Under the pieces are notes generated by a model. It ran no database searches. It was not told the origin of the DNA and worked only from the letters and a program-made list of their open reading frames with translations. From contig CAVUPH010000007.1 of the NCBI GenBank assembly GCA_963743305.1, forward strand, positions 192,001-256,000: a stretch of DNA of 64,000 bases. Reading direction: 5' to 3'. This DNA is from an uncultured delta proteobacterium (GTDB lineage: Bacteria; Desulfobacterota; RBG-13-43-22). Made by a program: the position numbers and the translations under genes. This document shows positions 15,033 through 62,605 of the stretch, piece after piece (the first letter of the stretch is position 1; each line of letters opens with the position of its first letter).

Positions 15033-15089
15033 GTTTATCCAATTGATTATTAATTATTAATGCCCATCCGTTAGGCCAGGGTATCCAGG

Positions 15090-17607: not shown

Positions 17608-17612
17608 TACTA

Positions 17613-18050: not shown

Positions 18051-18134
18051 CGATGGGCTCCTTTTCCCGGATGTTGATTTTCAACCCCTATTAATTTATA
18101 GGATACCAGATTTCCGAGGCAATCCTCAACAGCC

Positions 18135-18208
18135 CGTCTTCTTTTTTCTTTTCTCCTCTCCTCCTCATTGATCTTCCCCCATCTCCCTTCTTCTCTCTTC
18201 CCTCTCCG
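18135..18208. repeat. Purine/pyrimidine-skewed degenerate ~7-nt periodic arm (AGAGGGA-like on the minus strand)
   Basis: TCTTCCCCCATCTCCCTTCTTCTCTCTTCCCTCTCC immediately after the amidase stop codon. Confidence 0.45.
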
Positions 18209-19944: not shown

Positions 19945-20020
19945 GGCATGATCTCCTTGGTTGCCTATAACTTCGAAATACGAAATCCGAAACCAGCCTG
20001 AAGGTCCGAAATCCGGCTAT

Positions 20021-31391: not shown

Positions 31392-31453
31392 AACAAATCC
31401 TTTTTACGCTTGGCGCAAAGCGCTGAGCGCGAAGCGTTACTAGGTTTTTTTAT

Positions 31454-36099: not shown

Positions 36100-36142
36100 A
36101 TCCGAAATTCGGATTTCGAGTCTGAACCCAGGGAGGTTATCA

Positions 36143-47186: not shown

Positions 47187-47365
47187 AAGGACTGAACCCT
47201 CTTTCGGCTGATGAAATAATCTGTTAATTTTTAGCTAAGCCGTCGAGAAAGTCAAGGATTTATGAAACGGTTTTTAATTGACTTGGCCAAAAACATTCCT
47301 TACCCTAAATTTCGCCTTCCCCTGAGGCTAACGACTGTTGGATTGAGGGATAGTCACTGAAAAGG

Positions 47366-47461
47366 ATGAACATCGAACATCGAGCCTCCCCGATCGAATG
47401 GTTAAATAGAGGCTGGTTTTTCATTCGAGGTTGGAAGTTCGATGTTCAATGTTCGACGTCC
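47366..47461. repeat. Inverted pair of heptamer-periodic arms (AACATCG class)
   Basis: GAACATCGAACATCGAGCC...TCGAATG and CATTCGAGGTTGGAAGTTCGATGTTCAATGTTCGACGT. Confidence 0.75.
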
Positions 47462-47489
47462 TTCCGTTTCTAAAAGGTGAGGTTTTTTA

Positions 47490-48055
47490 GTGTCTCTATT
47501 CCCCTGTCCCCGCAGCCCGGTTGACCTTCATCACCGGACCCAGTCGAAGCGGCAAGACCCGCTTGGCGCTGAAGCTCGCTCTGAGTTATCCCGAGCCGCG
47601 GGGATACCTGGCCACGGCCCAGGCCCTGGATAAGGAAATGGCCTTCCGAATCCGCCGCCATCAGGAGGAGCGGGAAGGGGATTTTGTGACTATTGAAGAG
47701 CCGCTGCAATTAACCCGGGCGCTGAGTTCCCTAAATCGGACCTTTCTCGATAGTGATCATTGATTGTCTGACCCTCTGGCTAAACAACCTGATGGCCAAG
47801 TGGGGTGAGGATGAAGATTCGCTCCGACAGGAGGCCTTCCAGGTAGTGGAATTTTTTAAAACTTTTTCGGTTCCCACGGTTATTATCTCCAATGAAGTGG
47901 GCTGGGGGATCGTCCCGGATAATCCCCTGGCCCGTAAATTCAGGGACCTGTCCGGGAACCTGAATCAGGCACTGGCGGCCGTGGCTGATCAGGTTATTTT
48001 GGCCGTAGCCGGTATCCCGTTGGTCCTGAAACCTCATCCCTGCGGAAATTCCTGA
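47490..48055 (+). CDS. cobU: Adenosylcobinamide kinase/guanylyltransferase; frameshift near 47745 and probably another near the start
   Basis: ITGPSRSGKT, YLATA, RIRRHQEER and TIEEP, then IDCLTLWLNN, SNEVGWGIVP and FRDLSG in the next frame. Confidence 0.88.
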
Positions 48056-48805
48056 TGACCTCTTTCCTGGTGGCCTTACGGTTTCTAACTATTCTTCCCG
48101 TGGGCGGGGCTATCAGGGTCGACAGCGAGTTATTTATCCGTTCCAGCAAATACTACCCGCTGGTAGGCTTGGCCATCGGCGGACTGCTCTGGGGCTTCAA
48201 TCATTTGGCCTTGACGGCCTTTTCGGCCGGGCTGACGGCCGGGCTGCTAATCGCCTTCTGGGTCAGTTTTGACCGGGGCCCTGCATCTGGATGGCTTAGG
48301 GGACACGTTGGACGGCTGTTACGGCGGAAGGACCCCGGCCGACCGCCTGCGGATCATGAAAGACGTTCACCTGGGGTCCATGGGCGTTGTGGGCCTAGTA
48401 CTGCTCCTGATGATCAAATGGGTCGCTCTCGAGGAGCTGCTTTCTTCACCCACCCTGCCCGTCTTTTTGATACTGATTCCTCTGGCCGCCCGCTGGACCC
48501 CGGTGTTCTTAGCCTCCTTTTGGCCCTACGCCCGGCCGGAAGGCGGCCTGGGCCAGGGTTTGGTTCAGGAAATGGGGAAAAAGGAATTATTCTGGGCCAC
48601 GATTTTTGCCTGGGGGATCACCATCGGCGTTGCCGGGTGGCTGGGATTAGGACTCATGGCCGTTCAGCTTGTCTGGAGCCTGTTAAGCGGCTGGTTTTTT
48701 TTCCGAAAATTGGGCGGGGTGACCGGCGATGCTCTGGGCGCTACGATTGAAACCAGCGAACTGCTGGGAATCCTGTTTATTGTCGGGGTAGGCGGTCATG
48801 GGTAA
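48055..48805 (+). CDS. cobS: Cobalamin synthase; frameshift near 48268
   Basis: ALRFLTILP and YYPLVG, then TGALHLDGLGDTLDG, IMKD and GGVTGDALGA. Confidence 0.9.
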
Positions 48806-49418
48806 GCAGGAGAAGACCACCCGTCTCTTTCTGGTCCGGCACGGCGAGGTGGCGCAATCCGCCCAGGGAAAATTCTTGGGTTTTACCGATGCCGGCCTGA
48901 GCGCCAACGGACGGATTCAATTGGAGCGGCTTGCCCAGCGTCTGAAGATAGTGCCCTTGGAACGCGCTGTGGCCAGTGACCTCATCAGGGCCGTGGAGTC
49001 GGCCCAAATAATCTGCCGGGGAAGGGCCATAGAGCCGGAGGGGCGGGCTGAATTCCGCGAAATGAACATGGGCGAATGGGATGGGAGATCCTGGAAGGAG
49101 ATCGAGCGAAGGTACCCGAATCGAAAAAAATTCCATTTCAGCAACTTGAAGCAGTTCCGTTTCCCGGGCGGGGAAAACTGGGACCAATTCCGCAATCGCG
49201 TGCTCAAGGGCCTCAATACCCTCCTCGACGAAAACCGGGGGTCGGCTATTCTCCTGGCGGCCCATGCGGGGGTTAACCGGGTCATCCTGGCCAAGGCCTT
49301 GGGACTGCCCTTCAAAAGAATGTTTTTTATGGACCAGGCCTACGCCTGTCTGAATATCATCGATTACTATCAGGGTTACGCCATGGTTCGATTGATCAAT
49401 GGTACCTTTCCGGATTAG
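48798..49418 (+). CDS. cobC: Alpha-ribazole phosphatase (histidine phosphatase)
   Basis: LFLVRHGE, SDLIRA, EMNMGEWDG and HAGVNR; within the cob cluster. Confidence 0.82.
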   Translation: MGKQEKTTRLFLVRHGEVAQSAQGKFLGFTDAGLSANGRIQLERLAQRLKIVPLERAVASDLIRAVESAQIICRGRAIEPEGRAEFREMNMGEWDGRSWKEIERRYPNRKKFHFSNLKQFRFPGGENWDQFRNRVLKGLNTLLDENRGSAILLAAHAGVNRVILAKALGLPFKRMFFMDQAYACLNIIDYYQGYAMVRLINGTFPD

Positions 49419-49442
49419 CGCTGCAGGTGAAAACTATCGGCG

Positions 49443-49559
49443 GAGCGCGGAGCGCGAAGCGCAAAGCGTCAGGCTCGCCCTGGTGGAGATTCAGCCAAGG
49501 CGGATTCGAGACAGTTCATTGTTCCGATTGGCGCTCGGCGCTCGGCGCCCCGCGCTCCG
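49443..49559. repeat. Inverted pair of heptamer-periodic arms (AGCGCGG class)
   Basis: AGCGCGG AGCGCGA AGCGCAA AGCGTCA ... CGCTCGG CGCTCGG CGCCCCG CGCTCCG; a solo arm of this class lies at ~31413-31440. Confidence 0.7.
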
Positions 49560-49573
49560 CGGCCTTTCTAACC

Positions 49574-50533
49574 ATGCGCCCCTACCAATTCGCCCTCGCT
49601 TATCTTCTGGACCTGGCTATCGGCGATCCCCGGTTTATACCCCACCCGGTGCGTGGGTTTGGGTGGGCGATTCGTGTTCTGGAAAAGGCCCTCCGCCGGC
49701 CGGCTGAAAGTCCGGGGTGGGAAAGGTTTGCCGGGGTTATTTTAGCCCTGGGCTTGCCGGCCGCGGTTTTTTCGCTGACCTACTGGCTGATTTTCGGGCT
49801 GTTGCCAAGCCGGCCGGTCATCCAGTCCCTGGTCATTATTCTGTTGGCCTATACGACCCTGGCCACCCGGTCGTTGCACCACGAGGCCGCCCGGGTCATC
49901 ACGGCCCTGCAGGCCGGTAAGGTGACGGAAGCCCGGAAGCGGCTGAGCTGGATCGTTGGTCGGGACACGGAACACCTGACCCGGGAGGAGATGATCAAGG
50001 CCACCCTGGAAACCATGGCCGAAAACCTTTCCGACGGGATTATTGCCCCTTTATTTTACCTGTTGATCGGCGGGGTGCCCCTGGCCCTGGCCTTCAAGGC
50101 GGCCAGTACCCTGGATTCCATGGTAGGCTACAAAAATGATCGCTACCGCTATTTCGGTTGGGCCTCCGCCCGGCTGGACGATCTCTGGAATTATCTTCCG
50201 GCCCGAATTACCGCGCTATTGATCGTCCTGGTTTCCAGGTTTTGGGGCTTTTCCTGGAAACAGGCCTGGATCATCTACCGGCGGGATGGTCACCGGTACC
50301 CGAGCCCGAACGCCGGATTGCCCCAAGCCGCTTTAGCCGGCGCCTTGCAAATCCGCCTGGGCGGACCGGCCCTCTATGGGGGGGTAAAAAGCGAAAAGCC
50401 TTTTCTGGGCGATGACCGCGTCGAGATTACCCTGGCGGAATACCGCCAGACCGTGACTGTTTTGTATGCCTCCTCCGCCCTGATGGCCCTGGTCGTCCTT
50501 GGGGGGCGGTTTTTGTGGGAATATCTTCAATGA
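49574..50533 (+). CDS. cbiB: Adenosylcobinamide-phosphate synthase
   Basis: LDLAIGDP...HPV, IVGRDT, AENLSDGIIAP, TLDSMVGY and SPNAG. Confidence 0.93.
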   Translation: MRPYQFALAYLLDLAIGDPRFIPHPVRGFGWAIRVLEKALRRPAESPGWERFAGVILALGLPAAVFSLTYWLIFGLLPSRPVIQSLVIILLAYTTLATRSLHHEAARVITALQAGKVTEARKRLSWIVGRDTEHLTREEMIKATLETMAENLSDGIIAPLFYLLIGGVPLALAFKAASTLDSMVGYKNDRYRYFGWASARLDDLWNYLPARITALLIVLVSRFWGFSWKQAWIIYRRDGHRYPSPNAGLPQAALAGALQIRLGGPALYGGVKSEKPFLGDDRVEITLAEYRQTVTVLYASSALMALVVLGGRFLWEYLQ

Positions 50534-50686
50534 CAACCTCGCAGAAAGTCCAAAAACGATTTTCTACTCGGCGGGGGAGGGCCCTCCCTCCCCCGCCACT
50601 TGAAGTGAATTCAAATGGTCCCACCCCTACCCCAGACCGGGGCTTAATCGCCCTCGGTCTGTTGACGGACTTTTTGCGAGTCCGTC
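50531..50686. repeat. Shell element TGACAACCTCGCAGAAAGTCC...GGACTTTTTGCGAG with different internal hairpin cargo
   Basis: Ends nearly identical to those of 88-234; the interior contains GGCGGGGGAGGG/CCCTCCCCCGCC and AGACCGGGG/CCTCGGTCT hairpins. Confidence 0.75.
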
Positions 50687-50690
50687 TACA

Positions 50691-51767
50691 ATGAAAAACT
50701 GGATGCGCAATCGAACCTTCGAAGAGGCCCTGGGGCAGCTTTTTATGGTGGGGATCCCGGGTCCCCAATTTTCCGGCGAGGCGGTTTTCCTTTTAAAAAA
50801 GATCCGGGCCGGTGGGATCATTCTGTTTAAACGGAATTATCAGGACCCTGTTCAATTGGCTGATCTCTGCCGGCGACTGCAGACCTCGGCCCTGGAACTC
50901 CATTCGCTGCCGCTTTTTATTTCCATCGATCAGGAAGGGGGCCGGGTGCTTCGACTGGGACCGCCATTCACCCAGATCCCGGCGCCGGCCGAGATGGCCG
51001 CTGGAGGAGATCCGGAGGGGGCCGTGCGTCAATATGCCCGGGTAACGGCCCAGGAATTAAAACTGGCCGGGATCAATATGAACCTGGCCCCGGTCCTGGA
51101 CGTCAACCTCCGAGGAGCGGAAGGTTTGATGGCCTCCCGTTGCCTGGGTACGGACCCGGAGACGGTAACCCGGCTGGGCAGTCTGTATATCCGGGAACTC
51201 CAAAAAGGCGGGATCATGGCAGCGGCCAAGCATTTCCCGGGGATCGGCGACATTGTCCTGGATCCGCACCACGATCTGCCGGTTCAAGATAAGGATCTGG
51301 CCGGGCTGGAAGCGGCGGAACTGGTTCCTTTTAGAACGGCCGTTGCTCTGCCCGTGTCCGCGGTGATGCTGACCCATACCCTTTATCCGGCCCTCGACCC
51401 CAAATGGCCGGCCAGTCTGTCCCGGTCGATTATCACCGGTCTGTTGCGGGAAAACCTGGGGTACCAGGGGTTGGTGATCACCGACGACCTGGAAATGGGA
51501 GCCATCGGCAAGCATTTTGAAATTGAAGAGGCCGTGTTGACCGCTTTCCAAGGGGGGGCCGATATCCTCCTCATCTGCCACGAACCGGAAAAGATCGAAA
51601 GGGCCTACGCCTGCCTTTTAAAAGCCTTGAAACGGGGGACCATCCCCGCTCGATTTCTGGAAATTTCCCTGCAACGAATTCTCGCCTTAAAAAATAACTA
51701 CCTGCAGCTATTCTTACCCCCGTCCGAAGAAATAATCAGGGAATACTTTTTGCGTAAGATAGGTTAA
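50691..51767 (+). CDS. nagZ: Beta-N-acetylhexosaminidase (GH3)
   Basis: GGIILFKRN, SIDQEGGRV, APVLD, AKHFPGIG...DPH and ITDDLEMGAI. Confidence 0.9.
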   Translation: MKNWMRNRTFEEALGQLFMVGIPGPQFSGEAVFLLKKIRAGGIILFKRNYQDPVQLADLCRRLQTSALELHSLPLFISIDQEGGRVLRLGPPFTQIPAPAEMAAGGDPEGAVRQYARVTAQELKLAGINMNLAPVLDVNLRGAEGLMASRCLGTDPETVTRLGSLYIRELQKGGIMAAAKHFPGIGDIVLDPHHDLPVQDKDLAGLEAAELVPFRTAVALPVSAVMLTHTLYPALDPKWPASLSRSIITGLLRENLGYQGLVITDDLEMGAIGKHFEIEEAVLTAFQGGADILLICHEPEKIERAYACLLKALKRGTIPARFLEISLQRILALKNNYLQLFLPPSEEIIREYFLRKIG

Positions 51768-51801
51768 GACGGAACAGCAGAACCTCTTTTTCCATTAACC
51801 G

Positions 51802-51834
51802 TTCGCTGTTGGAAGTTCGATGTTCGACGTTCAT
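51802..51834. repeat. Solo arm of the AACATCG class
   Basis: TTCGCTGTTGGAAGTTCGATGTTCGACGTTCAT. Confidence 0.65.
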
Positions 51835-51862
51835 CTATTTTTGGGATGATCGGGATATCGGC

Positions 51863-52858
51863 CTATGAAGGTAATTTCGTATTTATCAATGAGTCTAATA
51901 CCCGCTGCAAGTCCTCCGGTGGTCCGGATTGAAAAAGGAGCTTTTCCCGGGTGACCGGGTGAAGCAGCTCCACGGTGGCCGCGTGCAGAAAGAGTCGGCC
52001 TGGGGCCAGATCAAAAAGGGGCGGGCTTTCCGTACCGTAGAGAGGATCGCCTACTACCGGGTGCCCCAATTCCGCCAGGTGGACCCTGATCTGGTGGGTG
52101 ACCCCGGTGATCAAATCCGCTTCCAGTAAAGAAAAATCCCGAAATCGTTTTAAAACCCGAAACCGGGTTTCCGCGGGGAAAATTCGACCCCGGTGAGCGG
52201 CCTCCCCTTCCCTTAGCGCTACCATCCGTCTTCGATCCCCGGGGTGATGGGCCAGGGGCAGCGTTACCACGCTTGGTTCGATGATCCCGGGGACCAGGAG
52301 CAGATATTTCTTGATCCATAAGCGCCGGGCTAAATCCTGTTTCAATTGGGACCAGGCCGCCTGGTTCCGTCCGGCGACCAGAATCCCGGAAGTTCCCGTA
52401 TCCAAGCGGTGGATCAGACCCGCCTCTAATGATTTTAACCCGACACCGCACAATTCCGGAAAAAAGTGGACCAGGGTGTTGGCCAGGGTCCCGGTTTCAA
52501 AAGGGCTTAAAGGGTGGGTGGGGACCAGGGCCGGTTTAGGCACTACGATAAGATCCGCATCCTGATAGATAATGGTCAAATGGGGGACGGGTTCCGAGGC
52601 GGGGCCGACCTCCAAGGGTCCCGGCAACCTTAGTTCAAGGCGATCCCCAGCCTGAAGGCGGTATCCCTTGTCAGCCGCCTGATCATTTATCAGGGCCCGG
52701 CCTTCCGCAATCAGAACCCGGATGTTTCTGCGGGACAATCCGGGGAATTTTAGTTGGAGAAATTTTTCCAAGCGTTGAGAGGACGAGTCTCCAGCGGCAA
52801 AAATCCATTCATGATTAAGGGGATCCGATTTGGGTGGCTGATCTGGCAAAGATTTCAA
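51863..52858 (-). CDS. RluA/RluD-family pseudouridine synthase with an S4 domain
   Basis: LIHRLDTGTSG, TGVTHQIRVHL, VVGDPLYG and FLHA. Confidence 0.92.
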   Translation of the reverse strand: MKSLPDQPPKSDPLNHEWIFAAGDSSSQRLEKFLQLKFPGLSRRNIRVLIAEGRALINDQAADKGYRLQAGDRLELRLPGPLEVGPASEPVPHLTIIYQDADLIVVPKPALVPTHPLSPFETGTLANTLVHFFPELCGVGLKSLEAGLIHRLDTGTSGILVAGRNQAAWSQLKQDLARRLWIKKYLLLVPGIIEPSVVTLPLAHHPGDRRRMVALREGEAAHRGRIFPAETRFRVLKRFRDFSLLEADLITGVTHQIRVHLAELGHPVVGDPLYGTESPPLFDLAPGRLFLHAATVELLHPVTREKLLFQSGPPEDLQRVLDSLINTKLPS

Positions 52859-53015
52859 TCCCGGATAAGGGTCAGGTTGGCCCGGAGGCTGATGGATATT
52901 TTACCAGATTCACCCCTACAGGCAACCGGAAGTTACAGTCGAAATATCCAAAGGGTTGACAAGTCCCGATGAAAACAATATACATTCGGGGAGTCGGGGG
53001 AGGGATTTATTCAAA

Positions 53016-53724
53016 ATGGAAATAGCCAGGGAAACCCATCAGGGCCTGAAAAGGGCCAATAATCAGGATCGCTATCTCGTTAGGGAGTATGGCCCAGAAG
53101 CCTTATTTCTGGCGGTGGCCGACGGTATGGGCGGAGAAGCGGCCGGCGACCGGGCCGCGCAGATCGCCATCGACAGTCTGGAGAATTTTCAGTCCGAAAC
53201 GGCTGATCCCCTCCTCCACCTTCAAAGCCTGTTTAAACAGGCCTCCGAAAATATCGAGGTCCAGGTGCGGCAGAACATTCAGTTGTCCGGAATGGGGACC
53301 ACCTTGACCGCCGTTTTCCTTTACGGGGGGCGGGCCTATTACGCCCATGTGGGGGACAGCCGCATCTACCATTTTCGGGCCGGGAGGTTAAAAAGGGTGA
53401 CTTGGGACCACACCTTGCCGGATACCTTGCTGAAGGAAGGGAATATTACCACCGAAGAAGCCCGGAATCATCCGGCGCAGCATATGCTGCTGCAATGTAT
53501 CGGCTGCGGCCGGTTCAAAGCCAGCACCGGAATTCTGAAGTTGGAGAGGGATGATATTCTTTTGGTAAGCAGTGATGGGCTGCATCACGAAATACCGGAA
53601 GAGGAAATTGCGCGCCCTGTTAACCGGCGCGAAAGACTTGGCCGGAATCCTCAAAACACTGGTTCAGGCCGCCTTAAATGCCGGGGGGCGGGATAATATC
53701 ACCATCGTGGCCGCCCGCATCTGA
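53016..53724 (+). CDS. PP2C/Stp1-type Ser/Thr phosphatase; frameshift near 53615
   Basis: NQD, VADGMGG, GMGTT, HVGDSR and SDGL; the conserved GGRDNITIV follows in another frame after a C run. Confidence 0.88.
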
Positions 53725-53729
53725 CCAAA

Positions 53730-53832
53730 TTCGAAAATCCCGCATCCGAAACCCAATTTCTAAGGGGGGAGTTATGGCCATTTTCGTTAAGACTCCTCCG
53801 TTTACAAAGGGAGGTTGGGAGGGATTTTCGAA
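53730..53832. repeat. Palindromic element with a 12-bp terminal IR and an internal CCTCC-TTT/AAA-GGGAGG hairpin
   Basis: TTCGAAAATCCC...GGGATTTTCGAA. Confidence 0.6.
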
Positions 53833-53879
53833 AAGATGAGATGGGTTCAATCCAACAAAAGGGCTCAATCCTGAAAAGC

Positions 53880-53970
53880 TCGAACATCGAACATCGAACG
53901 TCCAACGTCGAATGTCTAATGGTAAAGGACGAAGAAGCGTGGCAATTTTGGCAAGATGTTCGATGTTGAC
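53880..53970. repeat. Inverted pair of AACATCG-class arms
   Basis: TCGAACATCGAACATCGAACGTCCAACGTCGAATG...GATGTTCGATGTTGA. Confidence 0.75.
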
Positions 53971-54018
53971 GGATTGTTTTTTGATAATTGAGTTCCCACC
54001 GCGGGCAGGGCATTTTAA

Positions 54019-54930
54019 ATGGACACTCACCAAACTGTAGTTCTGAACTCCGCCGACAATACCCAGGCCCTGCTCGCTCCCGATCTGGGGGGCTGGCTTT
54101 TGCGCTACGCCCGTCATTTTGAGGACCGGGGATGGGAGGAGGCCCTCTTCTGGTCCCAGGAGGTGGTGGATCGTTATCCCCGGGAGATGTACGCCGGCAA
54201 TCCTATCCTTTTCCCGCTGGTAAGCTGGAATAGCGTCGAGGAAAAGAAACATTTCTACTCCTGGGAAGGCCGGACCTGGGCAATGCCCCAGCACGGGTTC
54301 GCCCGACGGTTGCCCTGGCAGGTGACCGGGCGGACGCCGGAGTCCGTGACCCTGGAACTACAGGACGATGAGGGGACCCGAAAAAATTATCCTTTTTCTT
54401 TTCTCCACCAAATAACCTATCGCCTGCAAGACGGGCGCCTTTACTGGTCTCAAAGCATCGAAAACCGCGGGGCCGGACCGATGCCCTTCAGCACCGGGTT
54501 TCATCCCTATCTCCTTGTTCCCCTCACGGATCAAGGCCGGCGTCGTGAATCTATTATTCGCATTCCCGACTGCCAAAAGGTGACCCCGATCGGGTCGTGG
54601 TCGGGATTCACCCGGGAACCGTTTCCTTTCCGGGAATGGGACGTGAATCATGAACTGGAAGGGACCCTCTTTCTGACCGATCTGGAAAAACCCGAGTTAC
54701 GTTTGATCGACTCCTTTCGAAAGCTGGAAGTTATTCTTAATTTTGAAGCGGCGCCCAAGCATCGTTTCGTCGCCCTCTGGACCCGCTCTCCGGAATCCCC
54801 CTTTTATTGCCTGGAGCCCTGGACGTCGCTCCCCAATTCCTTCGGCCGGATGGAGGAAGACCTGATTATTCTTCAGCCCGGGGAAACCTTCCAGGCGGAG
54901 ATGTGGCTGGAAATCAGGAAACAACAGTAA
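54019..54930 (+). CDS. Aldose 1-epimerase family protein
   Basis: GNPILFP, MPQHGFAR, YPFSF, GFHPY and FYCLEPW. Confidence 0.9.
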   Translation: MDTHQTVVLNSADNTQALLAPDLGGWLLRYARHFEDRGWEEALFWSQEVVDRYPREMYAGNPILFPLVSWNSVEEKKHFYSWEGRTWAMPQHGFARRLPWQVTGRTPESVTLELQDDEGTRKNYPFSFLHQITYRLQDGRLYWSQSIENRGAGPMPFSTGFHPYLLVPLTDQGRRRESIIRIPDCQKVTPIGSWSGFTREPFPFREWDVNHELEGTLFLTDLEKPELRLIDSFRKLEVILNFEAAPKHRFVALWTRSPESPFYCLEPWTSLPNSFGRMEEDLIILQPGETFQAEMWLEIRKQQ

Positions 54931-54983
54931 GGGGGATTTTAAGGGAGCTGGAATAACAACCGAACCTTCTAAATTTAATATTT

Positions 54984-55020
54984 ATGAACGTCGAACATTG
55001 AACATCGAACGCCCAACCTG
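54984..55020. repeat. Solo arm of the AACATCG class
   Basis: ATGAACGTCGAACATTGAACATCGAACGCCCAAC. Confidence 0.65.
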
Positions 55021-55054
55021 AAATTTAACTTGCAACCAACAACTGCGAACTCCC

Positions 55055-56107
55055 ATGAGCCATTCCCCGTCAATTGAAGATTCCGGTGAAGTGCTGGCCC
55101 TTGATATCGGGGGCGGGACCCAGGACCTTTTGATTTGGTCCCCGGACCGGTCTATGGAAAATTCGATCCAGTGTGTTTTGCCGTCGCCCACCGTGATGGT
55201 GGCCCGGGAAATCGATCGGATTACCGAACAGCAGCTACCCCTGTTTATCGATGGGCACCTGATGGGAGGCGGCGCTTCTTCCAGGGCGGTCCGGAGGCAC
55301 CTGAAAGCCGGACTCACCGTAGCGGCTCAAGCCAGAGCGGCCCGGACCTTGCACGACAACCTGGAGTACGTCAAAGCCCTGGGTGTGGTCATCACGGAAG
55401 ATCCTCCCCCGGGATCGGCCGTGGTGACCTTCTCCGACATTCGGGAAAAGACTTGGCGGGATTTTTTTGAGGCCTTCGGTCTGAATCGGCCCCGTCATTT
55501 ACTGGTGGCGGTGCAGGACCATGGGTATTCCCCGGTGGAGAGCAACCGCAAGTTCCGCTTCGACCACTGGCGGGAGTTCCTGGAGAGGGAACAACCTTTG
55601 GAGTCCCTTTTACTCCAGGAAATTCCCCCTTATTTAACCCGAATGCAGGCCATCCGGGAGACCTGGCCCCAAGCCCTGGTTATGGACACCGGCGCGGCCG
55701 CCATCTTGGGGGCGCTGGAGCACGAAGAACTGAACGGCCGGACGCCGGAGCAGACGCTGGTGGTGAACCTCGGTAATGAGCACACCCTGGCCGCCTGGCT
55801 GGTGGGAGGGGCCCTGAAGGGGATTTATGAGCATCATACCTTTTTTCTGGACCGGGAAAAGCTGTTGACCCACCTGGAGGCCTTTGTCCTCGGCCGGCTC
55901 AGCAACCAGCAGATCTTTGAAGACCAGGGCCATGGCTGCCTGAACCTGTCTCCCGCCCCGACCTTCTCTTCCACCTTGCTGGCCACCGGTCCCCGCCGGG
56001 CGTTGCTGGCCGGCACCCGGGCCGTCCTGGCCGCTCCTCATGGGAATATGATGCTCAGCGGCTGCTTCGGTCTGCTGCGGGCCTTCCGAGGCAGAACAGG
56101 GGCTTAG
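55055..56107 (+). CDS. DUF1786 family protein (actin-like/ASKHA motifs)
   Basis: LALDIGGGTQD, AVQDHG, SNRKFRF, MDTG, NLGNEHT, YEHHT and APHGNMMLSGCFGL. Confidence 0.82.
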   Translation: MSHSPSIEDSGEVLALDIGGGTQDLLIWSPDRSMENSIQCVLPSPTVMVAREIDRITEQQLPLFIDGHLMGGGASSRAVRRHLKAGLTVAAQARAARTLHDNLEYVKALGVVITEDPPPGSAVVTFSDIREKTWRDFFEAFGLNRPRHLLVAVQDHGYSPVESNRKFRFDHWREFLEREQPLESLLLQEIPPYLTRMQAIRETWPQALVMDTGAAAILGALEHEELNGRTPEQTLVVNLGNEHTLAAWLVGGALKGIYEHHTFFLDREKLLTHLEAFVLGRLSNQQIFEDQGHGCLNLSPAPTFSSTLLATGPRRALLAGTRAVLAAPHGNMMLSGCFGLLRAFRGRTGA

Positions 56108-56509
56108 GTCAAAGGGCGAGACTCGATAAAACGAAGACCAAGAGCCTTGCCACGCTGATTATCCGTTGGTTGTCTCCAAATATTCTGTTCCTCTCCTGCG
56201 TCTGGGAAAAACGCCTAGCTGTAAGTTTTTACCTCCTGCCATCCGGATAGGGTAACGAAATAAATCCCTCCGCGGACTTCCCAAAAAAAGCAGTGAATTT
56301 CTCTTTCGCTCGGTTTCAGGAATCTTCCCTGTCTGAAAAATTCATTGACAAAAGAGGACCAAACTCCTCAAGATAGCTTATAAAAAAGGTTTGGCCCCAC
56401 CTGGGCCTGGGAATAGATCGCCCGGAGAAGGGCTTTTGGTGTTTTGGGCAAGAGAAGAAGGTTCTGGATTCAGGGGGGAAGGAAGGTGTGAGTTTTTTGA
56501 CGTGCGTGC

Positions 56510-56666
56510 TTGTGAGAATAACTACGGGTTTTGATCGCGGAAGATGATCCGGCCCAGGCTGTGGCCATCAGGCGAGGATTAAACCAAGGCGATGGCGCCT
56601 TAGAAATTCAGATCACGAACCTGCAGAGACAGGAGGTGCGACACCATGGCGGAGCCGGCTGATTGA
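56510..56666 (+). mobile_element. Structured non-coding segment ending in a strong RBS and ATG with no gene; possible orphan IS110-family left end
   Basis: Nested stems CGGGTTT/GAACCTG, TGATC/GATCA and GCCATC/GATGGC with a 14x14-nt internal loop; AGGAGG and ATG 56646 give only MAEPAD*. The IS110 assignment is inference. Confidence 0.35.
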
Positions 56667-56704
56667 AACCGTGGCCGCTGCCGGAACCGGCGGGGCGCTA
56701 CGGG

Positions 56705-57273
56705 ATTTTGATATTCAGTTCCAAGCCTTGATAAAAAAGCTTAAATTGAATCCCTCCCGAATCAAGCTGGTAACCTATGACCCGGACTATGCCGACTTCT
56801 ATGAGCGGAAGACGGACGTAACGGCTTCTTATTTAACCGCCGGGATCATCAAGATGCGTCAAAAGGGTTATAAGCTCAACATCATTTGGCCCGGGGACTA
56901 TGGGGTGGGGTTCTATTCCGACACCCTGGTGACCAATGAACACTTGATAGCCCGGAAGCCGGGACTGGTTATCCGGTTTCTGCGGGCGACCCTGAAAGGC
57001 TGGCGAGAGGCCGTGGTGAACCCGGAAGCGGCAGCGGCCATTAGCCTGAAGTATAGCCTCAACCAGGACCTTGATTTTCAACTGGCCATGATGAAAGCGC
57101 TCCTTCCCTTGGTTCATACCGGTGAAGATCGAATTGGCTGGATGAAACCGGAGATATGGCAGGAGATGTCCCAGATGATGTTTGAGAATGGGATATTGGC
57201 CCGGAATGTGGATGTGGCCCAGGCGTACACCCTGCGGTTTCTAAAAGAAATCTACGGAGGCAGATCCGAATGA
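56705..57273 (+). pseudogene. N-terminally truncated NMT1/THI5-type substrate-binding protein
   Basis: GDYGVGFYSDTLVT, FLRATLKGW, IGWMKPEIWQ and AYTLRFL; no signal peptide or N-terminal lobe. Confidence 0.7.
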
Positions 57274-58340
57274 GGCTGTTCCCCAAGGTTTCGATTTTAA
57301 TCCTGGTGTCTGCTCTCCTGCCCGCGATCATTGTCGGTTATTTGGCCTATGGCGACAGTCGGCGCTCGATCATCAAGGAAACCATAAAACACCTTACCTC
57401 GATAAATATCTATAAGAGCAACGATCTCAGGCGCTGGGTTGAAGACAGCCGGCAAAGTCTTGAGGAACTGGCCCAGCGGCCCTTGATCAGACTCTATGCT
57501 GAATCCTTGAAGAACCATGAAACCCGGGGCGGCCTTTATCAAAAGGCCAGAGACCGCCTCCTCGATGACCATCTCAAACCAAGACTAAAGTACGGCAACT
57601 TCCTTGAGCTGTTCCTGATCAGTCCCAACCAGGGCGTAACCCTGGTTTCGACCGATGAAAGGCAAGAAGGGAAGTAATTACCTGGGGCAAAAGCCGAACC
57701 ACTGCAATGTCTACTATTCGCCCGGGCTGGAACGAACAGCATGCCATAGGAGCCTATAAAGGACAAATGGGGACCGGGGAGTTTGCCGGCCGTCTCGATC
57801 TGGGGGAGCTTTCGAAAATCATTAGGCAACAACCCGGGCGGGTCTGTTGGCTCTCTTTTTCGCCCGGACGTTAACCCGGCCGATAAGGAGGCTGGCGGCC
57901 GGAGCCGAGGAGATCGGTAAAGGCAACCTGGAATATCGGGTAGGCACGGATGCCCGGGACGAAATCGGGCAGCTTTCCAGGGTATTTGACGGGATGATCG
58001 AGAGTCTGAAAAGAACCACCGTCTCACGCGATGAACTCCTTGAAGAGATGAAAAAACGGAAGCTGGCTGAAGAATCGTTGCGAGTCAGCGCCACCCGCCA
58101 GGAGGCCCTGCTCACCGCCATTCCCGATATCATCATGGAAGTGGATGAAAATAAAGTTTACACTTGGGCGAATCAACCCGGCTTCGATTTTTTTGGAGAC
58201 GAAGTGATCGGCAAACCGGTCGACTTTTATTTCGAAGGAGAACAGGCCACCTATAGAATAGTCCAGTCCCTCTTTGAAGGCGAGGAGAATGTCATTTATG
58301 TCGAAAGCCGGCAGCGTCGTCAGGATGGACAGATGCGGCT
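57270..58340 (+). pseudogene. Decayed Cache-HAMP-PAS sensor kinase gene
   Basis: TM1 and a periplasmic part to 57677; indel-rich Cache remnant (NVYYSPGLER, AGRLDLGELSKII); jump to TM2 and HAMP (RDEIGQLSRVF); PAS cut off at RRQDGQMRL; no kinase domain. Confidence 0.72.
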
Positions 58341-58489
58341 TGGTGAAGAAGTCGTGGTGACGATAAGACCGTCCTGGCTGGGAGACGTGGTGAGTCAGGA
58401 AGAGATGTCGAGGACAGTATGGTCAGCAGCCAAGCTTTCTGGTCAAGTTGTTCAAACTGCCGAGGTATTGGAGGATCATCCCTTCTGAG

Positions 58490-58718
58490 AAGTGCGTGGG
58501 GGTGTGGGGAATGGAAGGATAGTGTGTGAGTGTGTGGGGATGTGAGTCTGGGGGAAGGATCGTGGGATGGCAAGCTCTGACTACTTACATGCTCACGCAC
58601 TCACATCCCCACATACTTCTTTTCCCACTTACTCACTCACCCACATACCGACCCTATTGCCCACATACCCGCATACTTTTGTTCACACATACATACTCAC
58701 CCAGGCACTCCCATACTG
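58490..58718. repeat. Inverted arms of ~8-nt periodic GTGTGTGA/GTGTGTGG versus CCCACATA/CTCACACA repeats
   Basis: G/T-rich left half and C/A-rich right half; GTGTGTGAGTGTGTGGG recurs near 62478 and, with one mismatch, near 62570. Confidence 0.75.
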
Positions 58719-58737
58719 TTCTTAAGAAGGAGTCCAA

Positions 58738-61700
58738 GTGAAGCTGAAAGTATTGATCGCAGAAGATGAACCGGCCCATGAGGAGGCCATCAGAAGGGCA
58801 TTAAGCAAAGCCGATGGCGCCTTTGAAATTCAAGTAGCTGGAACCCTGCAAGAATTCCGGGGGCTGGCCGCCGTCGATCCGCCGGATATCGCCCTGCTGG
58901 ATTTGAACCTGCCGGATGGCCGCGCCGTGGAAGTCCTGACCTTCCCTCCGGAAGCCGGACCCTTTCCGGTCCTGATCATGACCAGTTTCGGCAGCGAACA
59001 GGCAGCGGAGGAGGCCATGAAATGTGGGGCGCTGGATTACCTGGTCAAGTCCCCGGAGACCTTTTCCCAACTTCAACGGATCATCAAAAGGACGTTGCGG
59101 GAATGGCGGTTGCTTCAAGAGAAGAAGGAGGCGGAGGAACTCCTGCGCCAAAGCCGGCACTTGTATCAAACGTTCCTGGACAGCTTTTCCGATACGACCT
59201 TCCTTAAGGATGAACAGTTCCGCCACTTGATTCTCAACGAGCGATTGCTGGAATATTTTGGCAAACCACGCGAAGAAGTCATCGGGAAAACCGATTTTGA
59301 TTTGATGCCCGCCGCCTTGGCTGAAAAATGTCGTCGTTCCGATAAGGCCGTCCTGGCAGGTGAAGCCGTGGTGGTTTCTGAAGAGCTGGTCGGGGACCGT
59401 ATTTATGAAACTACCAAGTTTCCGGTCCAAGTTGCTTCCAACCGGCGAGGTATTGGAGGTTACATTCGCGATATCACCGCGCGACGGCAGGCCGAGGAGG
59501 CTCTCCGGGAAAGCACGGAGATGTTACAGGCGCATCAGGTCGAACTGGAGATGCAGAATGAGGAATTGCGACGGATCCAGGGGCAACTGGAAGTCTCGCA
59601 GGGCAGGTATTTCGATCTGTACAATCTGGCTCCGGTGGGTTACCTCACCCTCAACGAAAAAGGCCTGATCCTGGAGGCCAATCTCACCGGCGCCGAGCTC
59701 CTGGGCCAATCCGGAGGTGCCTTGATCAATCAGCCGTTGACCCGCTTCATCCTGCCGGAAGATCAGGACATCTATTACCGGCACCGAAAACTCCTTCTTG
59801 AAACGGGTGCGCCGCAGGTGTGCGAGATGAGAATGCTGGGGCGCGCAGACAGCATATTCTGGGTTCGTCTGGATGCGGCTATCACCCAGAACGCCGACGG
59901 ATCTTGGGTTTGCCGCGCCGTATTGATCGACATTACTGCCCGAAAACAGTCGGAAGAGAGCCTACGGGAGAGCGAGGCGCGGTACCGCGACCTGGTGGAA
60001 AACAGCCAGGATTTGATCTGTACCCACGATTTGGAGGGGAAGCTGGTATCCGTAAATGAGGCCGCGGCCAGAAATATGGGCTATGACCGGGGTTCCCTTC
60101 TGAACCGCAACCTGCGGGATTTTCTCGATCCCGCGGTTCGAGACTTGTTCGCAGTCTATTTGTCGGAAATCAAGGAGACCGGAAGGTCCCAGGGGGTACT
60201 GCGGGTATTGAACGCCTCCGGGGATGTCCGACTTTGGGAATACAGCAATTCCTTGCGGACCGAGGGATTGGCCGTTCCCCTGGTCCGCGGCCTGGCCCAC
60301 GACATTACCGAACGGCACCGGATCGAGCGGGCCCTTCTGAAAAGCGAGGCCAAGTACCGGCGGCTCCATGAATCGATGATGGATGCCTTTGTCAGCGTCG
60401 AGATGACCGGCCGGATAACGGAATTCAACCAGGCCTATGAAGCTTTATTGGGCTATTCAAAAGAGGAACTTCGTCGGCTGACCTATATGGATCTGACTCC
60501 GGAACGCTGGCATTCCCTGGAGAGGGATCTGGTGAATGAGCAAGTCTTGGTGCGGGGATACTCGGACATCTATGAAAAGGAATATCGAAGGAAGGACGGG
60601 ACCGAGTTCCCCGTGGAAATGCGGACCTTTTTGATCCGGGACTCCCATGGCCGGCCGGAAGGGATGTGGGCCATTGTGCGGGACATCAGCGAGAGGAAAA
60701 GGGGGGAAGAAGCCTTGCGCAAGGCCGAGGAAAAGTACTCCAAGGCCTTTCAGGCGAGTCCGGACTGGGGCGCAATCACCACCTTGGACGAGGGGGTTTT
60801 GATTGAGGTGAATAAGGCCTTTGAACGCTTGAGCGGGTTTGAGCGAAAAGAGGTCCTGGGAAGGACCACCGCGGATATAGGGATCTGGGACCAACCCGAG
60901 GAACGTCGTCTCCTGATAGACTTGATGCGGGATCAGGGGGCGGTTCACAATAAGGAGGTCCATTTTCGGCTGAAGAATGGTGCGGTCCAAACCTTCATGC
61001 TCTCCGCGGAAACGATCGAACTGGAGGGCCAGGCCTTGATGCTGACGGTGGCCCGGGATATGACGGAACTTCGGAGTCTGGAGGCCCAGTTTCGCCAGGC
61101 CCAGAAGATGGAGGCGGTGGGCCGTTTGGCCGGCGGGGTGGCCCACGACTTCAACAACATGCTGGGGGTAATCCTGGGCTATACCGACCTGGCCCTGAAG
61201 CGGGTGAATGCCCAGGAACCCCTCTATCAGGACCTTCAGGAAGTAAATAATGCGGCCCGGCGTTCAGCCGATCTGACCCGGCAGCTTCTGGCCTTTTCCC
61301 GAAAACAAATGGTAACGCCCAGGGTCCTCAATTTGAATGAGGCCATAACCCACCAGCACAAGATGTTGAGACGGCTGATCGGCGAGGATATCTACCTGCA
61401 GTTTATCCCGGGCCAAGACCTCTGGAATATTCGTCTGGACCCTTCCCAAGTCGACCAGGTGCTGGCCAATCTGGCGGTCAATGCCCGAGATGCCATCGCC
61501 GGAGTGGGGACCGTCACCATCGAGACGGCGAACGTCACCCTGGATGAGGGCTATACCCGGCGCTACCGCTATGTCACTCCCGGGGATTACGTGCTCCTGA
61601 CCATGAGCGATTCGGGCTGCGGCATGGACGGGGAGACGCTGGAGACTATCTTCGAACCATTTTTCACCACCAAAGCCGAAGGGCAGGGGACCGGGCTGGG

Positions 61701-62220
61701 ACTGTCCACGGTTTACGGGATCGTCAAGCAAAACAAGGGATCGATTCAGGTCTCTAGCGAACCGGGCCGGGGGACGACCTTCAAAATCTATTTTCCCCGC
61801 TTCCCGGGGGAGGCGGTCCCGGAGGAGCAGGAGAGGGAGCGGCCTTTAGGGGGGAGCGAAACCGTGCTGATCGTCGAGGACGAACCCCAGATTCTCCTGC
61901 TGGCCAAAAGGATCTTGGAGCATTACGGCTATGAAACCGTGGGCGCCGGTTCTCCGGGAGAGGCACTGCTGCTCCTGGAAAAGTATCGGGGCCCCCTAGA
62001 CCTTCTGCTGACCGATGTGATCATGCCCCACATGACCGGCCCGGAACTGAAAGCGCGGGTGGAGTCGCTTCATCCGGGGATCAAGACGGTGTTTATGTCC
62101 GGCTACACGGCCGACGTGATCGCCCAGCGGGGACTTCTGGATAAGGGGTTGGCCTTTATTCAAAAGCCTTTCACCGTGCAGGATTTAGCCGGGATGGTGC
62201 GGAAAGCGTTGGATGGATAG
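58738..62220 (+). CDS. Hybrid sensor kinase REC-(PAS)x5-HisKA-HATPase-REC
   Basis: [12 protein letters not shown], repeated PAS ends (RDITAR, IDITAR, HDITER, RDISER, RDMTE), [20 protein letters not shown] and LLTDVIMP. Confidence 0.93.
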
Positions 62221-62227
62221 GCAAAAA

Positions 62228-62605
62228 GCCTTCGGCGTTGGGCGTTCGGCGATCGGCGTGGGAAGGAAGAGAAAAAGGGGGAAAGGGAGTCGAATATCCA
62301 ATATCCAACAAGGAATTGCCAATGATGAAGGAAAGAATTGTTGATCTACAGGTCCGGAGCGATGATTTCATCGAGGATGCCAGGAAAAACAAAGCCCGAG
62401 GGTGAACCACTATTTGGGTCTTGGATATTCCTTGTTGGATATTGGATATTCAAAGGATCATAGTGCCGGGAGAAGAAGTGTGTGAGTGTGTGGGTAAGTG
62501 AGGATGTGGGGGAAATCAGAGCCAAGGGGGAAAGAGCACAGTGTTCAGGGTGGAGTTCAGGGGGGAGACGTGTGTGAGTGTCTGGGTAGGTGGGTTGTGA
62601 GTAAG
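62228..62605. repeat. Cluster of different periodic repeat arms
   Basis: GGCGTTG/GGCGTTC/GGCGATC/GGCGTGG heptamers, the AATATCC IR pair, two GTGTGTGAGTGT arms and GTTCAGGG x2. Confidence 0.65.
62292..62451 (+). mobile_element. Miniature element: perfect 25-bp IR enclosing a 27-aa ORF resembling an internally deleted four-helix-bundle gene
   Basis: GAATATCCAATATCCAACAAGGAAT/ATTCCTTGTTGGATATTGGATATTC; ORF 62322-62405 MMKERIVDLQVRSDDFIEDARKNKARG*. Confidence 0.55.

Follow-up and report, generated by a model that had tools for sequence, protein, structure and literature searches.

Periodic inverted arms in the intergenic DNA of a soil Desulfobacterota genome as probable stems of mobile-looking four-helix-bundle gene cassettes

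The periodic inverted arms in the 64,000-nucleotide stretch analysed in this work (the window) are probably the stems of small hairpin cassettes, present here mostly as derivatives. The known behaviour of intervening sequences in 23S rRNA genes suggests that these cassettes would be co-transcribed with the host operon and that the stem formed by their arms in the transcript would be cleaved by RNase III. The anatomy of the cassettes, their cargo, the series of derivatives, presence/absence between relatives and an excess over chance were all observed, and the cassettes are mobile-looking. A full cassette (~410-650 nt) has two inverted arms around one gene. Each arm consists of tandem 7-mers, or more rarely 8- or 9-mers, usually 3-5 of them but in some cases many more, and the enclosed gene encodes a four-helix-bundle protein of ~120 aa (Pfam 23S_rRNA_IVP, NCBIfam TIGR02436). 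Internal deletion gives derivatives of 80-280 nt that keep both arms and the first and last codons; palindromes of the stem alone form a second type and solo arms, produced by further erosion, a third. Every arm class appears to be paired with its own protein clade. Copies occupy intergenic spacers, often within operons, and are gained and lost among genomes that are 95-98% identical.

Results

Period-7 arrays in intergenic DNA

The genome is a 4.9-Mb, 90%-complete assembly of a soil bacterium. Its intergenic DNA (647 kb, crude annotation from ORFs of at least 80 aa) was scanned for arrays and compared with five dinucleotide shuffles. Period-7 arrays were found 162 times versus a mean of 4.6 in the shuffles, period-8 arrays 33 times (5.4 in the shuffles) and period-11 arrays 8 times (4.6 in the shuffles). 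Genome-wide, Tandem Repeats Finder reported 386 rows of period 7, compared to 165, 179, 178 and 135 rows of periods 6, 8, 10 and 11 respectively. Of 259 arrays, 78 had a partner in inverted orientation no more than 250 nt away (score of at least 12), versus 9 of 259 in a reversed-only control. The arrays and inverted pairs described in the first-pass annotation are consequently real, and the excess over shuffled controls that it had named as a check was found. In the window, Tandem Repeats Finder placed period-7 arrays at 15042, 19974, 47368, 49440, 49530, 51801, 53880, 54986, 62231, 62293 and 62435, and period-8 arrays at 58521 and 62477.

A four-helix-bundle gene between the arms

PF05635 was present in 33 of 41 related genomes. 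Flanking inverted arms (inverted repeat score of at least 13) were detected at 136 of the 167 PF05635 loci examined in relatives and in metagenomes (43/52, 34/40 and 59/75 in the three locus sets), versus 1 of 54 shifted controls. The best arm period was 7 in 50 of the 77 armed cassettes of relatives (8 in 13, 9 in 4, none in 10) and in 50 of the 59 armed metagenome cassettes (8 in 3, none in 6). Arms were weaker outside the phylum, where a score of 13 was reached in 2/8 Scalindua and 0/3 Nitrospiraceae loci. In the genome studied here, four of the eight PF05635 loci had flanking arms at this threshold and a fifth scored 10. All four proteins tested were above the TIGR02436 cut-off, and the cargo protein matched PDB 2RLD (E = 2.9e-15). 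With both neighbours pointing the same way, the gene was co-oriented at 21 loci and opposed at 6 (crude ORF annotation); among 14 classifiable family A derivatives, judged by eye, 11 were co-oriented and 3 opposed.

Filled cassettes of the same genus carried family A (AACATCG) arms (L138, L145), family B (CGAAATC/AAATTCG) arms (L129, L142, L143), AATATCC arms (L126), AATAATT arms (L124, L127, L137) or AAGATGG arms (L119), and GGCGTTC-type arms flanked the four-helix-bundle gene in same-family genomes. Cassette arms from a library of 141 cassettes matched 170 of the 259 period-7 arrays (36 in reversed controls), and 89 arrays matched no arm of this library. The cargo association that had been put forward as a check was thereby found for the AACATCG, CGAAATC, AATATCC and GGCGTTC classes, but not for the AGCGCGG/GCGC classes (0/15 arrays matching library arms) or the GTGTGTGA 8-mers, for which neither the 141 cassettes nor one gapped pattern search of 21 family genomes gave a cargo-bearing counterpart.

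An emptied AATATCC cassette and its filled relative

A filled AATATCC cassette of 453 nt lies just beyond the window (C7:258046-258498), with its arms around an ORF that matches PF05635 (E = 1.8e-14); family B arms enclose another PF05635 ORF at C13:21190-21656. Within the window, the AATATCC element at 62292..62451 (forward strand) has 31-nt arms (62292-62322 and 62421-62451, 94% complementary) and a strong predicted RNA fold (62285-62458, z = -6.86). In its remnant ORF (62323-62406, 27 codons), the first codons of the four-helix-bundle gene run directly into the last ones, and the ends of the element match the filled cassette (G000:C7:258046-258511) with 88% identity over the first 66 nt and 84% over the last 81 nt. 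Judged by sequence, the element corresponds to a copy of the C7 cassette with its interior deleted. This gutted copy, together with the arms flanking most PF05635 loci, bears out the suggestion of the first-pass annotation that the arms are emptied or eroded ends of four-helix-bundle cassettes. Directly to the left of the element, a partnerless GGCGTTC heptamer array (62228..62259) shows sequence matches to the arms of two four-helix-bundle cassettes, L184 and L189. To its right, GTGTGTGA 8-mer arrays (62477..62600) lack an inverted partner; this motif also adjoins the AATATCC cassette in G003 (L126:1885-1918).

Family A elements

An nhmmer search of the genome identified 65 family A arms, which form 22 pairs (83-280 nt) and 21 solos. 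The copies have their variant heptamers in an identical series and their inner ends in common, and families B and AATAATT show ordered arms as well. The ~140-nt elements run from ORF start to ORF end and then the right arm, matching L138/L145 minus the interior; despite the 22 pairs, no filled family A cassette was found in this 90%-complete assembly. Arm complementarity was 0.643 within elements and 0.669 with the arms of other copies (the observed value was equalled or exceeded in 1938 of 2000 permutations). As their own arms are no more complementary than foreign ones, the short copies look like decaying remnants and not like selected hairpins.

Four family A sites are in the window. Upstream of cobU, a cargo-less hairpin (47368..47462) has 33-nt arms (47368-47400 and 47422-47454, 79% complementary) with matches to the arms of the L138 and L145 cassettes, and it is predicted to fold (47359-47470, z = -5.05). 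A solo right arm that matches the L138 arm (51801..51835) is located between convergent GH3 and RluD-like genes. The element at 53880..53975 (forward strand) retains a remnant of the cassette ORF start in its loop, but its right arm is eroded and the region 53868-53978 folds with a z of only -0.98. A solo left arm (54984..55017) was recognised as a Tandem Repeats Finder array with a family A arm match. Neither of these solo arms (folded at 51795 and at 54980) gave an RNA structure.

Polymerase slippage favouring 7-nt units, an idea reportedly advanced by Mrazek et al. 2007 and in keeping with cyanobacterial STRR repeats, would make such arrays in place as ordinary long simple-sequence repeats, with no mobile unit and no cargo; we consider this highly unlikely here. 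The variation of unit number among copies of one family and the arrays that match no cassette arm (89/259) speak for it, as does the abundance of heptamers, which the available text of PMC4679880 and PMC4692102 cites as outnumbering all other classes of long repeats in many prokaryotes. However, dispersed copies have variant-unit order and inner ends in common, ORF remnants included, the arms surround one gene family (136/167 loci vs 1/54 controls), and inverted pairs (78/259 vs 9) are not produced by slippage alone. An independent origin of the main classes is refuted because unrelated loci have unit order and flanking remnants in common. This pattern sets the arrays apart from free simple repeats: every main class forms a dispersed family in which the arms are ordered.

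Presence and absence between close relatives

In G002 (95-98% identical), the whole ~95 nt of the 47368 element is missing from the orthologous spacer. No target-site duplication is visible at this, the one clean empty site, which could equally have arisen by precise loss. The element at 49440 is kept, loop included, in L001 and swapped for a different heptamer element in G002. In the spacer of the 51801 solo right arm, G002 retains the left arm and the interior. A segment of 214 nt (53760-53974) containing the 53880 element is missing in L001 and G002, and both have two small ORFs instead in the spacer of the 54984 solo arm. At other spacers the genomes compared differ in the element present, or in the half of one element that is kept. 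The presence/absence variation between strains that had been named as a further check is therefore present.

This variation bears on another reading, in which the arrays are retained because they serve the host as regulatory sites or as RNA structures (terminators, mRNA stabilisers, paired global-regulator sites). Their location in spacers within operons and between convergent genes, the strong folding of paired elements and the conservation of the 49440 element with its loop in L001 would agree with host functions; in addition, paired opposite-strand sites of 3-5 tandem 7-9-mers in Geobacter metallireducens are read as regulator sites in the accessible part of PMC2700814. Nevertheless, sites are present, absent or class-swapped among 95-98% identical genomes, complementarity within a copy is not maintained, many copies are eroded solos and the full form has its own gene, so that host regulation is a very improbable explanation.

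Conventional non-autonomous transposons, either MITEs mobilised by a DDE transposase that shares their ends or REP/REPIN elements mobilised by a RAYT (IS200/IS605-type Y1) enzyme, are the least probable source and by our reckoning a very unlikely one. In their favour, the elements are small and multi-copy, have terminal inverted repeats and are missing from one site of a close relative; in addition, 10 Y1_Tnp matches occur in the genome, several of them with open frames of 320-350 aa. Against them, the 2.5 kb on either side of each Y1_Tnp match contain no period-7 array, Y1_Tnp flanks lack repeats in common with the arrays, no family A arm pair reaches insertion-sequence spacing (maximum 280 nt), the 47368 empty site shows no target duplication and the long form encodes a four-helix-bundle protein and not a transposase.

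Comparison with known systems

Hairpin cassettes, the reading we prefer, have their closest counterpart in ORF-bearing 23S rRNA intervening sequences. The available text of PMC4990558 describes that of Coxiella burnetii as ~430 nt long, with terminal inverted repeats, a ~28-bp stem and an S23p ORF; the 5' arm of the stem has 2-3 tandem GACAGAT heptamers, in strain-variable number, and RNase III cuts at the first repeat. ORF-bearing intervening sequences of Leptospira, Brucella and Xanthomonas are cited there too. As far as described, the cassettes resemble these sequences in the small S23p / 23S_rRNA_IVP four-helix-bundle ORF in the loop between inverted arms, and the Coxiella one also in the heptamers of the stem, ORF decay and internal deletions. 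The sense strand of rRNA intervening sequences is reported to be transcribed with the host gene, a likeness that may extend to the cassettes. Unlike intervening sequences, which lie in helix 25 or 45 of 23S rRNA, the cassettes are located between protein-coding genes, have many arm classes per genome and have left more than 100 gene-less derivatives; RNase III excision has been shown for rRNA intervening sequences only. The system, initially described as unrecognised, is not wholly so, because ORF-bearing 23S rRNA intervening sequences have an identical design.

Published heptanucleotide repeats include STRR of Calothrix/Nostoc, GGGAATC of Xanthomonas, TAACTGA of Beggiatoaceae and the Geobacter metallireducens sites (PMC4692102, PMC4679880, PMC2700814). 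As characterised in the accessible parts of these reports, they are likewise intergenic tandem 7-mers with several unit sequences per genome, sometimes in inverted pairs, variable among close relatives and without accepted function. They are treated there as stand-alone or regulator sites, with no mention of a four-helix-bundle gene in those parts, whereas most arrays here are traceable to the arms of gene cassettes. MITEs and REPINs are similarly short, non-coding, hairpin-forming, multi-copy, intergenic, present or absent between strains and derived by internal deletion from a longer gene-bearing parent; the cassettes differ in a parent without known transposase, no target duplication seen, no RAYT association and internally periodic arms.

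Read from the outside inwards, the arm units are YAG(T/G)NNN in most cassettes. HutP is described in the available portion of PMC2425495 as recognising XAG triplets with 4 spacer bases, three per face, flanking a stem; this spacing therefore has period 7. Solved members of the cargo family are reported as pentameric rings (PMC4990558 and PMC10053308, in the text available, citing Lin et al. 2006). Any resemblance to HutP and TRAP, two Bacillus regulators that bind RNA as rings, would lie in a possible way of working, with putative arm binding, and not in family, the cargo protein being without sequence or fold relation to either. PF05635 also resembles Avd of diversity-generating retroelements and belongs to the same protein superfamily (PMC10053308). 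The L089 protein matched NF033474 (E = 9e-9) with 35.6 bits, far under the equivalog cut-off of 80 bits, and unlike Avd retroelements the cassettes lack both the template repeat and the variable repeat.

Other array sites in the window

Between a His_Phos_1 (cobC-like) gene and cobD lies a GCGC-class (AGCGCGG) element (49440..49561), an inverted repeat of heptamers around a loop of 57 nt. Its 32-nt arms (49440-49471 and 49529-49560) are 81% complementary and it is predicted to fold (49436-49565, z = -4.19); no cargo-bearing relative was found in the 141-cassette library or by the gapped pattern search of 21 family genomes. A solo GCGC-class array, recognised from its sequence (31406..31437), has no cassette-arm match and matches L125 flanks only. 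The degenerate purine-class (AGAGGGA) stretch at 18140..18205 (reverse strand), listed in the first-pass annotation at about 18135, proved weak: it is below the array threshold, has period 10 in Tandem Repeats Finder (18182-18200) and matches no cassette arm. The arrays at 58490 and 62478 are loose 8-mers. The first belongs to a long imperfect hairpin (58491..58720) with loosely 8-nt-periodic arms, the left GT-rich and the right CA-rich (unit NCNCACAT); comparison with cassette arms gave no cargo link, and its inverted pair (58529-58547 and 58599-58617, 19 nt) is 95% complementary within a predicted fold (58488-58622, z = -5.61). A solo family B (CGAAATN) array (19974..19992) matches the arms of L129 and L143, a short palindrome of family B units (36098..36116) was recognised by its sequence and its arm matches to L129, and an AATAATT-class half palindrome (15042..15061) matches the L124 arm. 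The window also contains an RNase III gene (35413-35799).

Periodic arrays are in excess and pair as inverted repeats

The first-pass annotation had described intergenic arms of tandem 7- or 8-mers, paired or solo, and read them as candidate mobile or RNA-hairpin cassettes. Tandem Repeats Finder and an inverted-repeat scan recovered these arrays and pairs at their positions, and every listed array lies in a spacer between protein-coding genes. Genome-wide, Tandem Repeats Finder returned 386 rows of period 7, compared to 135-179 for periods 6, 8, 10 and 11. The 647 kb of intergenic DNA hold 162 period-7 arrays (4.6 after dinucleotide shuffling), so the arrays exceed shuffled controls as the annotation implied; this intergenic set was delimited by crude ORF calls (at least 80 aa) and is therefore biased towards labelling repeats as coding. 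Spurious ORFs and ORFs with over-long starts cross the arms in this annotation (e.g. 49427 and 53699-54013), which gives the cassette reading a practical use in gene calling. The genome-wide catalogue lists 259 arrays, which occupy 209 loci and fall into 81 unit classes. An inverted partner was present within 250 nt for 78 of the 259 arrays (9 in a reversed-only control). The paired elements of the window folded as RNA far better than their shuffles (z -4.2 to -6.9), while solo arms did not.

The assembly has 4.9 Mb in 43 contigs, with a G+C content of 54.6% and a completeness of 90%. Its nearest named relative, a delta proteobacterium MAG, is syntenic over 39.5-56.1 kb of the window at 83-91% nucleotide identity. 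The region of the arrays contains a cobalamin operon (cobU, a weak CobS match, a histidine-phosphatase (cobC-like) gene and cobD) as well as GH3, RluD-like, PP2C phosphatase, aldose epimerase, DUF1786 and PAS histidine-kinase genes. The cobU gene appears as two overlapping ORFs (47521-47763 and 47753-48055) matching the two halves of PF02283; either a frameshift or a fault in the assembly may explain the split. The only RNase III match of the genome (PF14622, E = 5.3e-39) lies in the window at 35413-35799.

Arms enclose a four-helix-bundle gene

A filled cassette, i.e. two periodic inverted arms around one four-helix-bundle gene, is located just past the window end (C7:258046-258498 of the same contig), where the window element at 62292-62451 has several relatives. 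It has the same 31-nt arms as that element, and its 103-codon ORF (C7:258079-258390) matches PF05635 (23S_rRNA_IVP, E = 1.8e-14). The 62292-62451 element corresponds to 66 nt at the start and 81 nt at the end of this cassette, with approximately 320 nt between them missing; since both ends are kept without the middle, its 27-codon ORF is a fused gene stump. This remnant (62323-62406) is all that is left of a PF05635 gene within the window, and the suspected link of the 62292 copy to four-helix-bundle genes held, the copy being a gutted relative of a PF05635 cassette.

PF05635 was detected at eight loci in the genome, with inverted arms scoring at least 13 at four, one of them with CGAAATC (CGAAATN) arms (family B), and 10 at a fifth. 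In three genomes of the same genus, 22 of 30 loci had an inverted-repeat score of at least 13. Filled cassettes in these genomes carry AACATCG arms (family A; L138, L145), family B arms (L129, L142, L143), AATATCC (L126), AATAATT (L124, L127, L137) or AAGATGG arms (L119), and at the same-genus locus L095 the gene lies between GCGCGAGA 8-mer arms. The proteins of L145, L089, L126 and L143 exceed the TIGR02436 cut-off. Compared to L138 and L145, the family A elements of approximately 140 nt retain the ORF start, the ORF end and the right arm, and their interior is deleted. The gene was co-oriented with its same-direction neighbours at 21 loci and opposed at 6 (crude ORFs), and family A derivatives, judged by eye, were co-oriented in 11 of 14 cases and opposed in 3; this predominant co-orientation is compatible with read-through transcription.

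Arms of a library of 141 cassettes were matched by 170 of the 259 arrays (E <=1e-3; 36 in reversed controls). The matched fraction was 38/39 for AACATCG, 28/30 for AATAATT, 12/12 for AAATCCG, 5/5 for AACGCCG (GGCGTTC), 5/6 for AATATCC, 8/10 for AAGATGG and 9/12 for AAGAGGG. The cassette reading is supported for five of the seven classes named at first, together with AATAATT added here; no cargo link was found for the GCGC classes (AGCGCGG included) and the GTGTGTGA class.

Dispersed copies form families and appear to decay

A profile search with the family A arm found 65 arms in the genome, arranged as 22 pairs (83-280 nt) and 21 solos. The CGAAATC class has an ordered arm of approximately 45 nt, AATAATT forms palindromes of approximately 40 nt, the purine class is solo for the most part, and different classes occur adjacent to or nested within each other. 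Dispersed AACATCG copies have in common an ordered series of variant units, identical inner ends and similar outer flanks. Stand-alone heptamer SSRs (STRR/LSSR) would account for the intergenic 7-mer excess, yet they imply an independent origin at each locus, which is contradicted by what the dispersed copies share: the order of their units, their inner ends and remnants of the ORF. In family A, the complementarity of an element's own two arms was not above that of arms drawn from different elements, and no compensatory stem maintenance was seen, so that the short copies seem to be eroding without constraint.

Close relatives differ in the presence of elements

Presence/absence variation was found in G002, a relative that matches 10 kb of the window at 95-98% identity. 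G002 has a clean empty site for the approximately 95-nt element at 47368, with the junction '...AAAAGGA' followed by 'TTCCGTTT...' and no duplicated bases. At this single site, the difference could be an insertion or a precise loss alike. In a relative's locus (L001), this spacer has an arm remnant at another position. Between cobC and cobD, this genome and L001 have a GCGC-class hairpin, and G002 has a different heptamer element; the spacer at 51800 has a right arm here, compared to a left arm plus interior in G002. Moreover, 214 nt around 53880 are missing from L001, and where G002 has an AATAATT cassette (L137), this genome has an AT-rich stump of 25 nt. No RNA run was listed as containing this DNA. 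Four soil/sediment DNA runs from one study contained 7-14% of the sequence words; their low-depth contigs showed joints caused by repeats between copies of family A and a single contig skipping 50524-50691, and are uninformative on the presence or absence of heptamer elements.

Armed cassettes are widespread in relatives and metagenomes

Among 41 related genomes, 33 had PF05635 matches, in most cases 3-15 per genome. Inverted repeats scoring at least 13 accompanied 136 of 167 PF05635 loci (43/52, 34/40 and 59/75 in the three sets of fetched loci), compared to 1 of 54 control intervals shifted by 900 nt, in agreement with the proposed association between arms and cargo. The metagenomes were scanned with an alignment of closely related proteins, a broader one being too heterogeneous for this purpose, so that the metagenome set, its best 80 hits, samples the canonical protein type only and is neither random nor independent. 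The median cassette span was 481 nt. The 7/8-nt period noted at first was borne out: the best arm period was 7 in 100 of the 136 armed cassettes, 8 in 16 and 9 in 4, with none in the remaining 16. In one metagenome cassette (L257), each arm has more than 20 heptamers (AGTTCAC/AGTTCTT units; inverted-repeat score 103), showing that arms are able to grow far past 3-5 units. Outside the phylum the association was weaker: a score of at least 13 was reached at 2 of 8 loci in a Scalindua MAG, where several arms are visibly periodic, and at 0 of 3 loci in a Nitrospiraceae MAG. Protein clades and arm classes associate across genomes (e.g. in six genomes, AGGATTCA 8-mers accompany the 'MLKNYKELKVW' clade), as expected of a unit inherited or moved whole.

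Comparison with known systems

The closest known counterpart is the ORF-bearing 23S rRNA intervening sequence. As described in PMC4990558, that of Coxiella is 428 nt long, with an S23p ORF and a 28-bp stem of terminal inverted repeats whose 5' arm has two or three tandem GACAGAT heptamers, the number depending on the strain; RNase III cleaves at the first repeat, and the ORF is decaying, with a large deletion in one strain. The cassettes likewise combine a PF05635/TIGR02436 ORF, terminal inverted repeats able to pair over at least 20 bp and heptamers in the stem, and resemble the Coxiella sequence in all but location; by analogy, RNase III may cut them here. Intervening sequences interrupt the 23S rRNA gene at helix 25 or 45; the window copies are all between protein-coding genes, and no Rfam family, including rRNA, attained its gathering score in the window. 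Many arm classes and plentiful gene-less debris further distinguish the cassettes from the Coxiella sequence. An excess of heptamer repeats in bacteria has been described repeatedly, with no cause given and no mention of the four-helix-bundle gene in the accessible portions of PMC4679880, PMC4692102 and PMC2700814. Among the full texts searched, which cover few subscription journals, heptamers and this protein family were joined only in the Coxiella paper (PMC4990558).

MITEs would be comparable in their short inverted ends, but no target-site duplication was present at the single clean filled/empty pair (47368 compared to G002). No transposase-encoding parent with the same ends was found, as family A pairs span at most 280 nt and the long forms carry the four-helix-bundle gene; no family A arm pairs at insertion-sequence spacing were found in the genome. 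The PF05635 family is reported to resemble the Avd protein of DGRs (PMC10053308), but the L089 protein scored 35.6 bits against a cut-off of 80 for the Avd equivalog NF033474, and those of L145, L126 and L143 had no match. For a REP/REPIN-RAYT system, none of the 10 Y1_Tnp matches had a period-7 array within 2.5 kb or common flanking repeats. ORFs of 305-350 aa overlap weak Y1_Tnp (IS200/IS605-like) matches at C18:79892-80845, C6:109177-110094, C30:12645-13694 and C24:103852-104853; some of them have common small conserved flanking motifs, unrelated to the heptamer arrays. A cyanobacterial STRR origin is ruled out, since a genome with no PsaA/PsaB (photosystem I core) match and no HIP1 excess (56 compared to approximately 105 expected) is not cyanobacterial.

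The heptamer period

Heptamer repeats have been on record in bacteria since 1990 and 2007 but, to our knowledge, have never been explained, and we know of no function for the S23p/four-helix-bundle family, familiar from rRNA intervening sequences since the 1990s; these two old puzzles may be one. When 58 upstream arms were read from outside to inside, the heptamer contained AG in 51 (32.4 expected with letters shuffled within units) and CT in 11 (16.1 expected), with the consensus YAG(T/G)NNN. In a second count, AG was present in 45 of 50 metagenome cassettes (29.0 expected) and in 35 of 50 from relatives (26.2 expected). The divergent protein type of the genus pairs, by eye, with CGAA- or CCAA-type units.

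A joint reading, which we put forward tentatively and consider rather unlikely, would be that the four-helix-bundle protein, as a pentameric ring, recognises the heptamers of its own arms, with each subunit taking up one YAG-N4 unit, and so opens, protects or copies the hairpin. On this reading, a protein ruler and not a polymerase artefact would set the 7-nt period, the heptamer excess in many bacterial genomes (STRR, GGGAATC, TAACTGA and others) would stem mainly from cassettes and their debris, and the intervening sequences of 23S rRNA would simply be those copies that ended up there. Such recognition would be analogous to that of XAG-N4 repeats by HutP, a ring-shaped regulator reported to read XAG triplets with four-base spacing on both sides of a stem (PMC2425495). 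If the cassette reading is true, a very common 'hypothetical protein' gains a cis-partner, open to gel shift, many of the repeats between genes in such genomes can be labelled as remains of cassettes, and the intervening sequences of rRNA are one particular form of a broader selfish element that resides in operon spacers.

Classes without a cargo link and neighbouring repeats

None of the 15 GCGC-class arrays matched the 141 cassettes, and a gapped GCGC pattern with arms 380-410 nt apart, the sole spacing tried, had no matches in 21 family genomes. The GTGTGTGA 8-mers recur only as neighbours of AATATCC cassettes, and no cargo link was found for them.

The solo arm site at 54984 corresponds in L001 (17800-18440) and G002 (C32, approximately 17500-18070) to two small ORFs that resemble a putative antitoxin/PIN-toxin pair. 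A dispersed repeat of approximately 155 nt lies between cobD and GH3 (50537-50690); it has its own terminal inverted repeats without a heptamer period, occurs in dozens of copies (75-93% identity) in each of three related genomes (G001-G003), and its site is empty in G002 and in the soil contig that skips it. Small G-rich hairpin/repeat motifs ('GGGAGG...', 'GGGGGATTT') adjoin heptamer elements at 53790-53835 of the window and at L001:10990-11110. A composite of a GGCGTTC array, an AATATCC element and GTGTGTGA arrays, in this order, occupies 62228-62600 and recurs at C7:262353-262579; it is partly present in G003 (L126:1885-1918). AATATCC copies are clustered among the PAS histidine-kinase genes at 254-266 kb of the contig.
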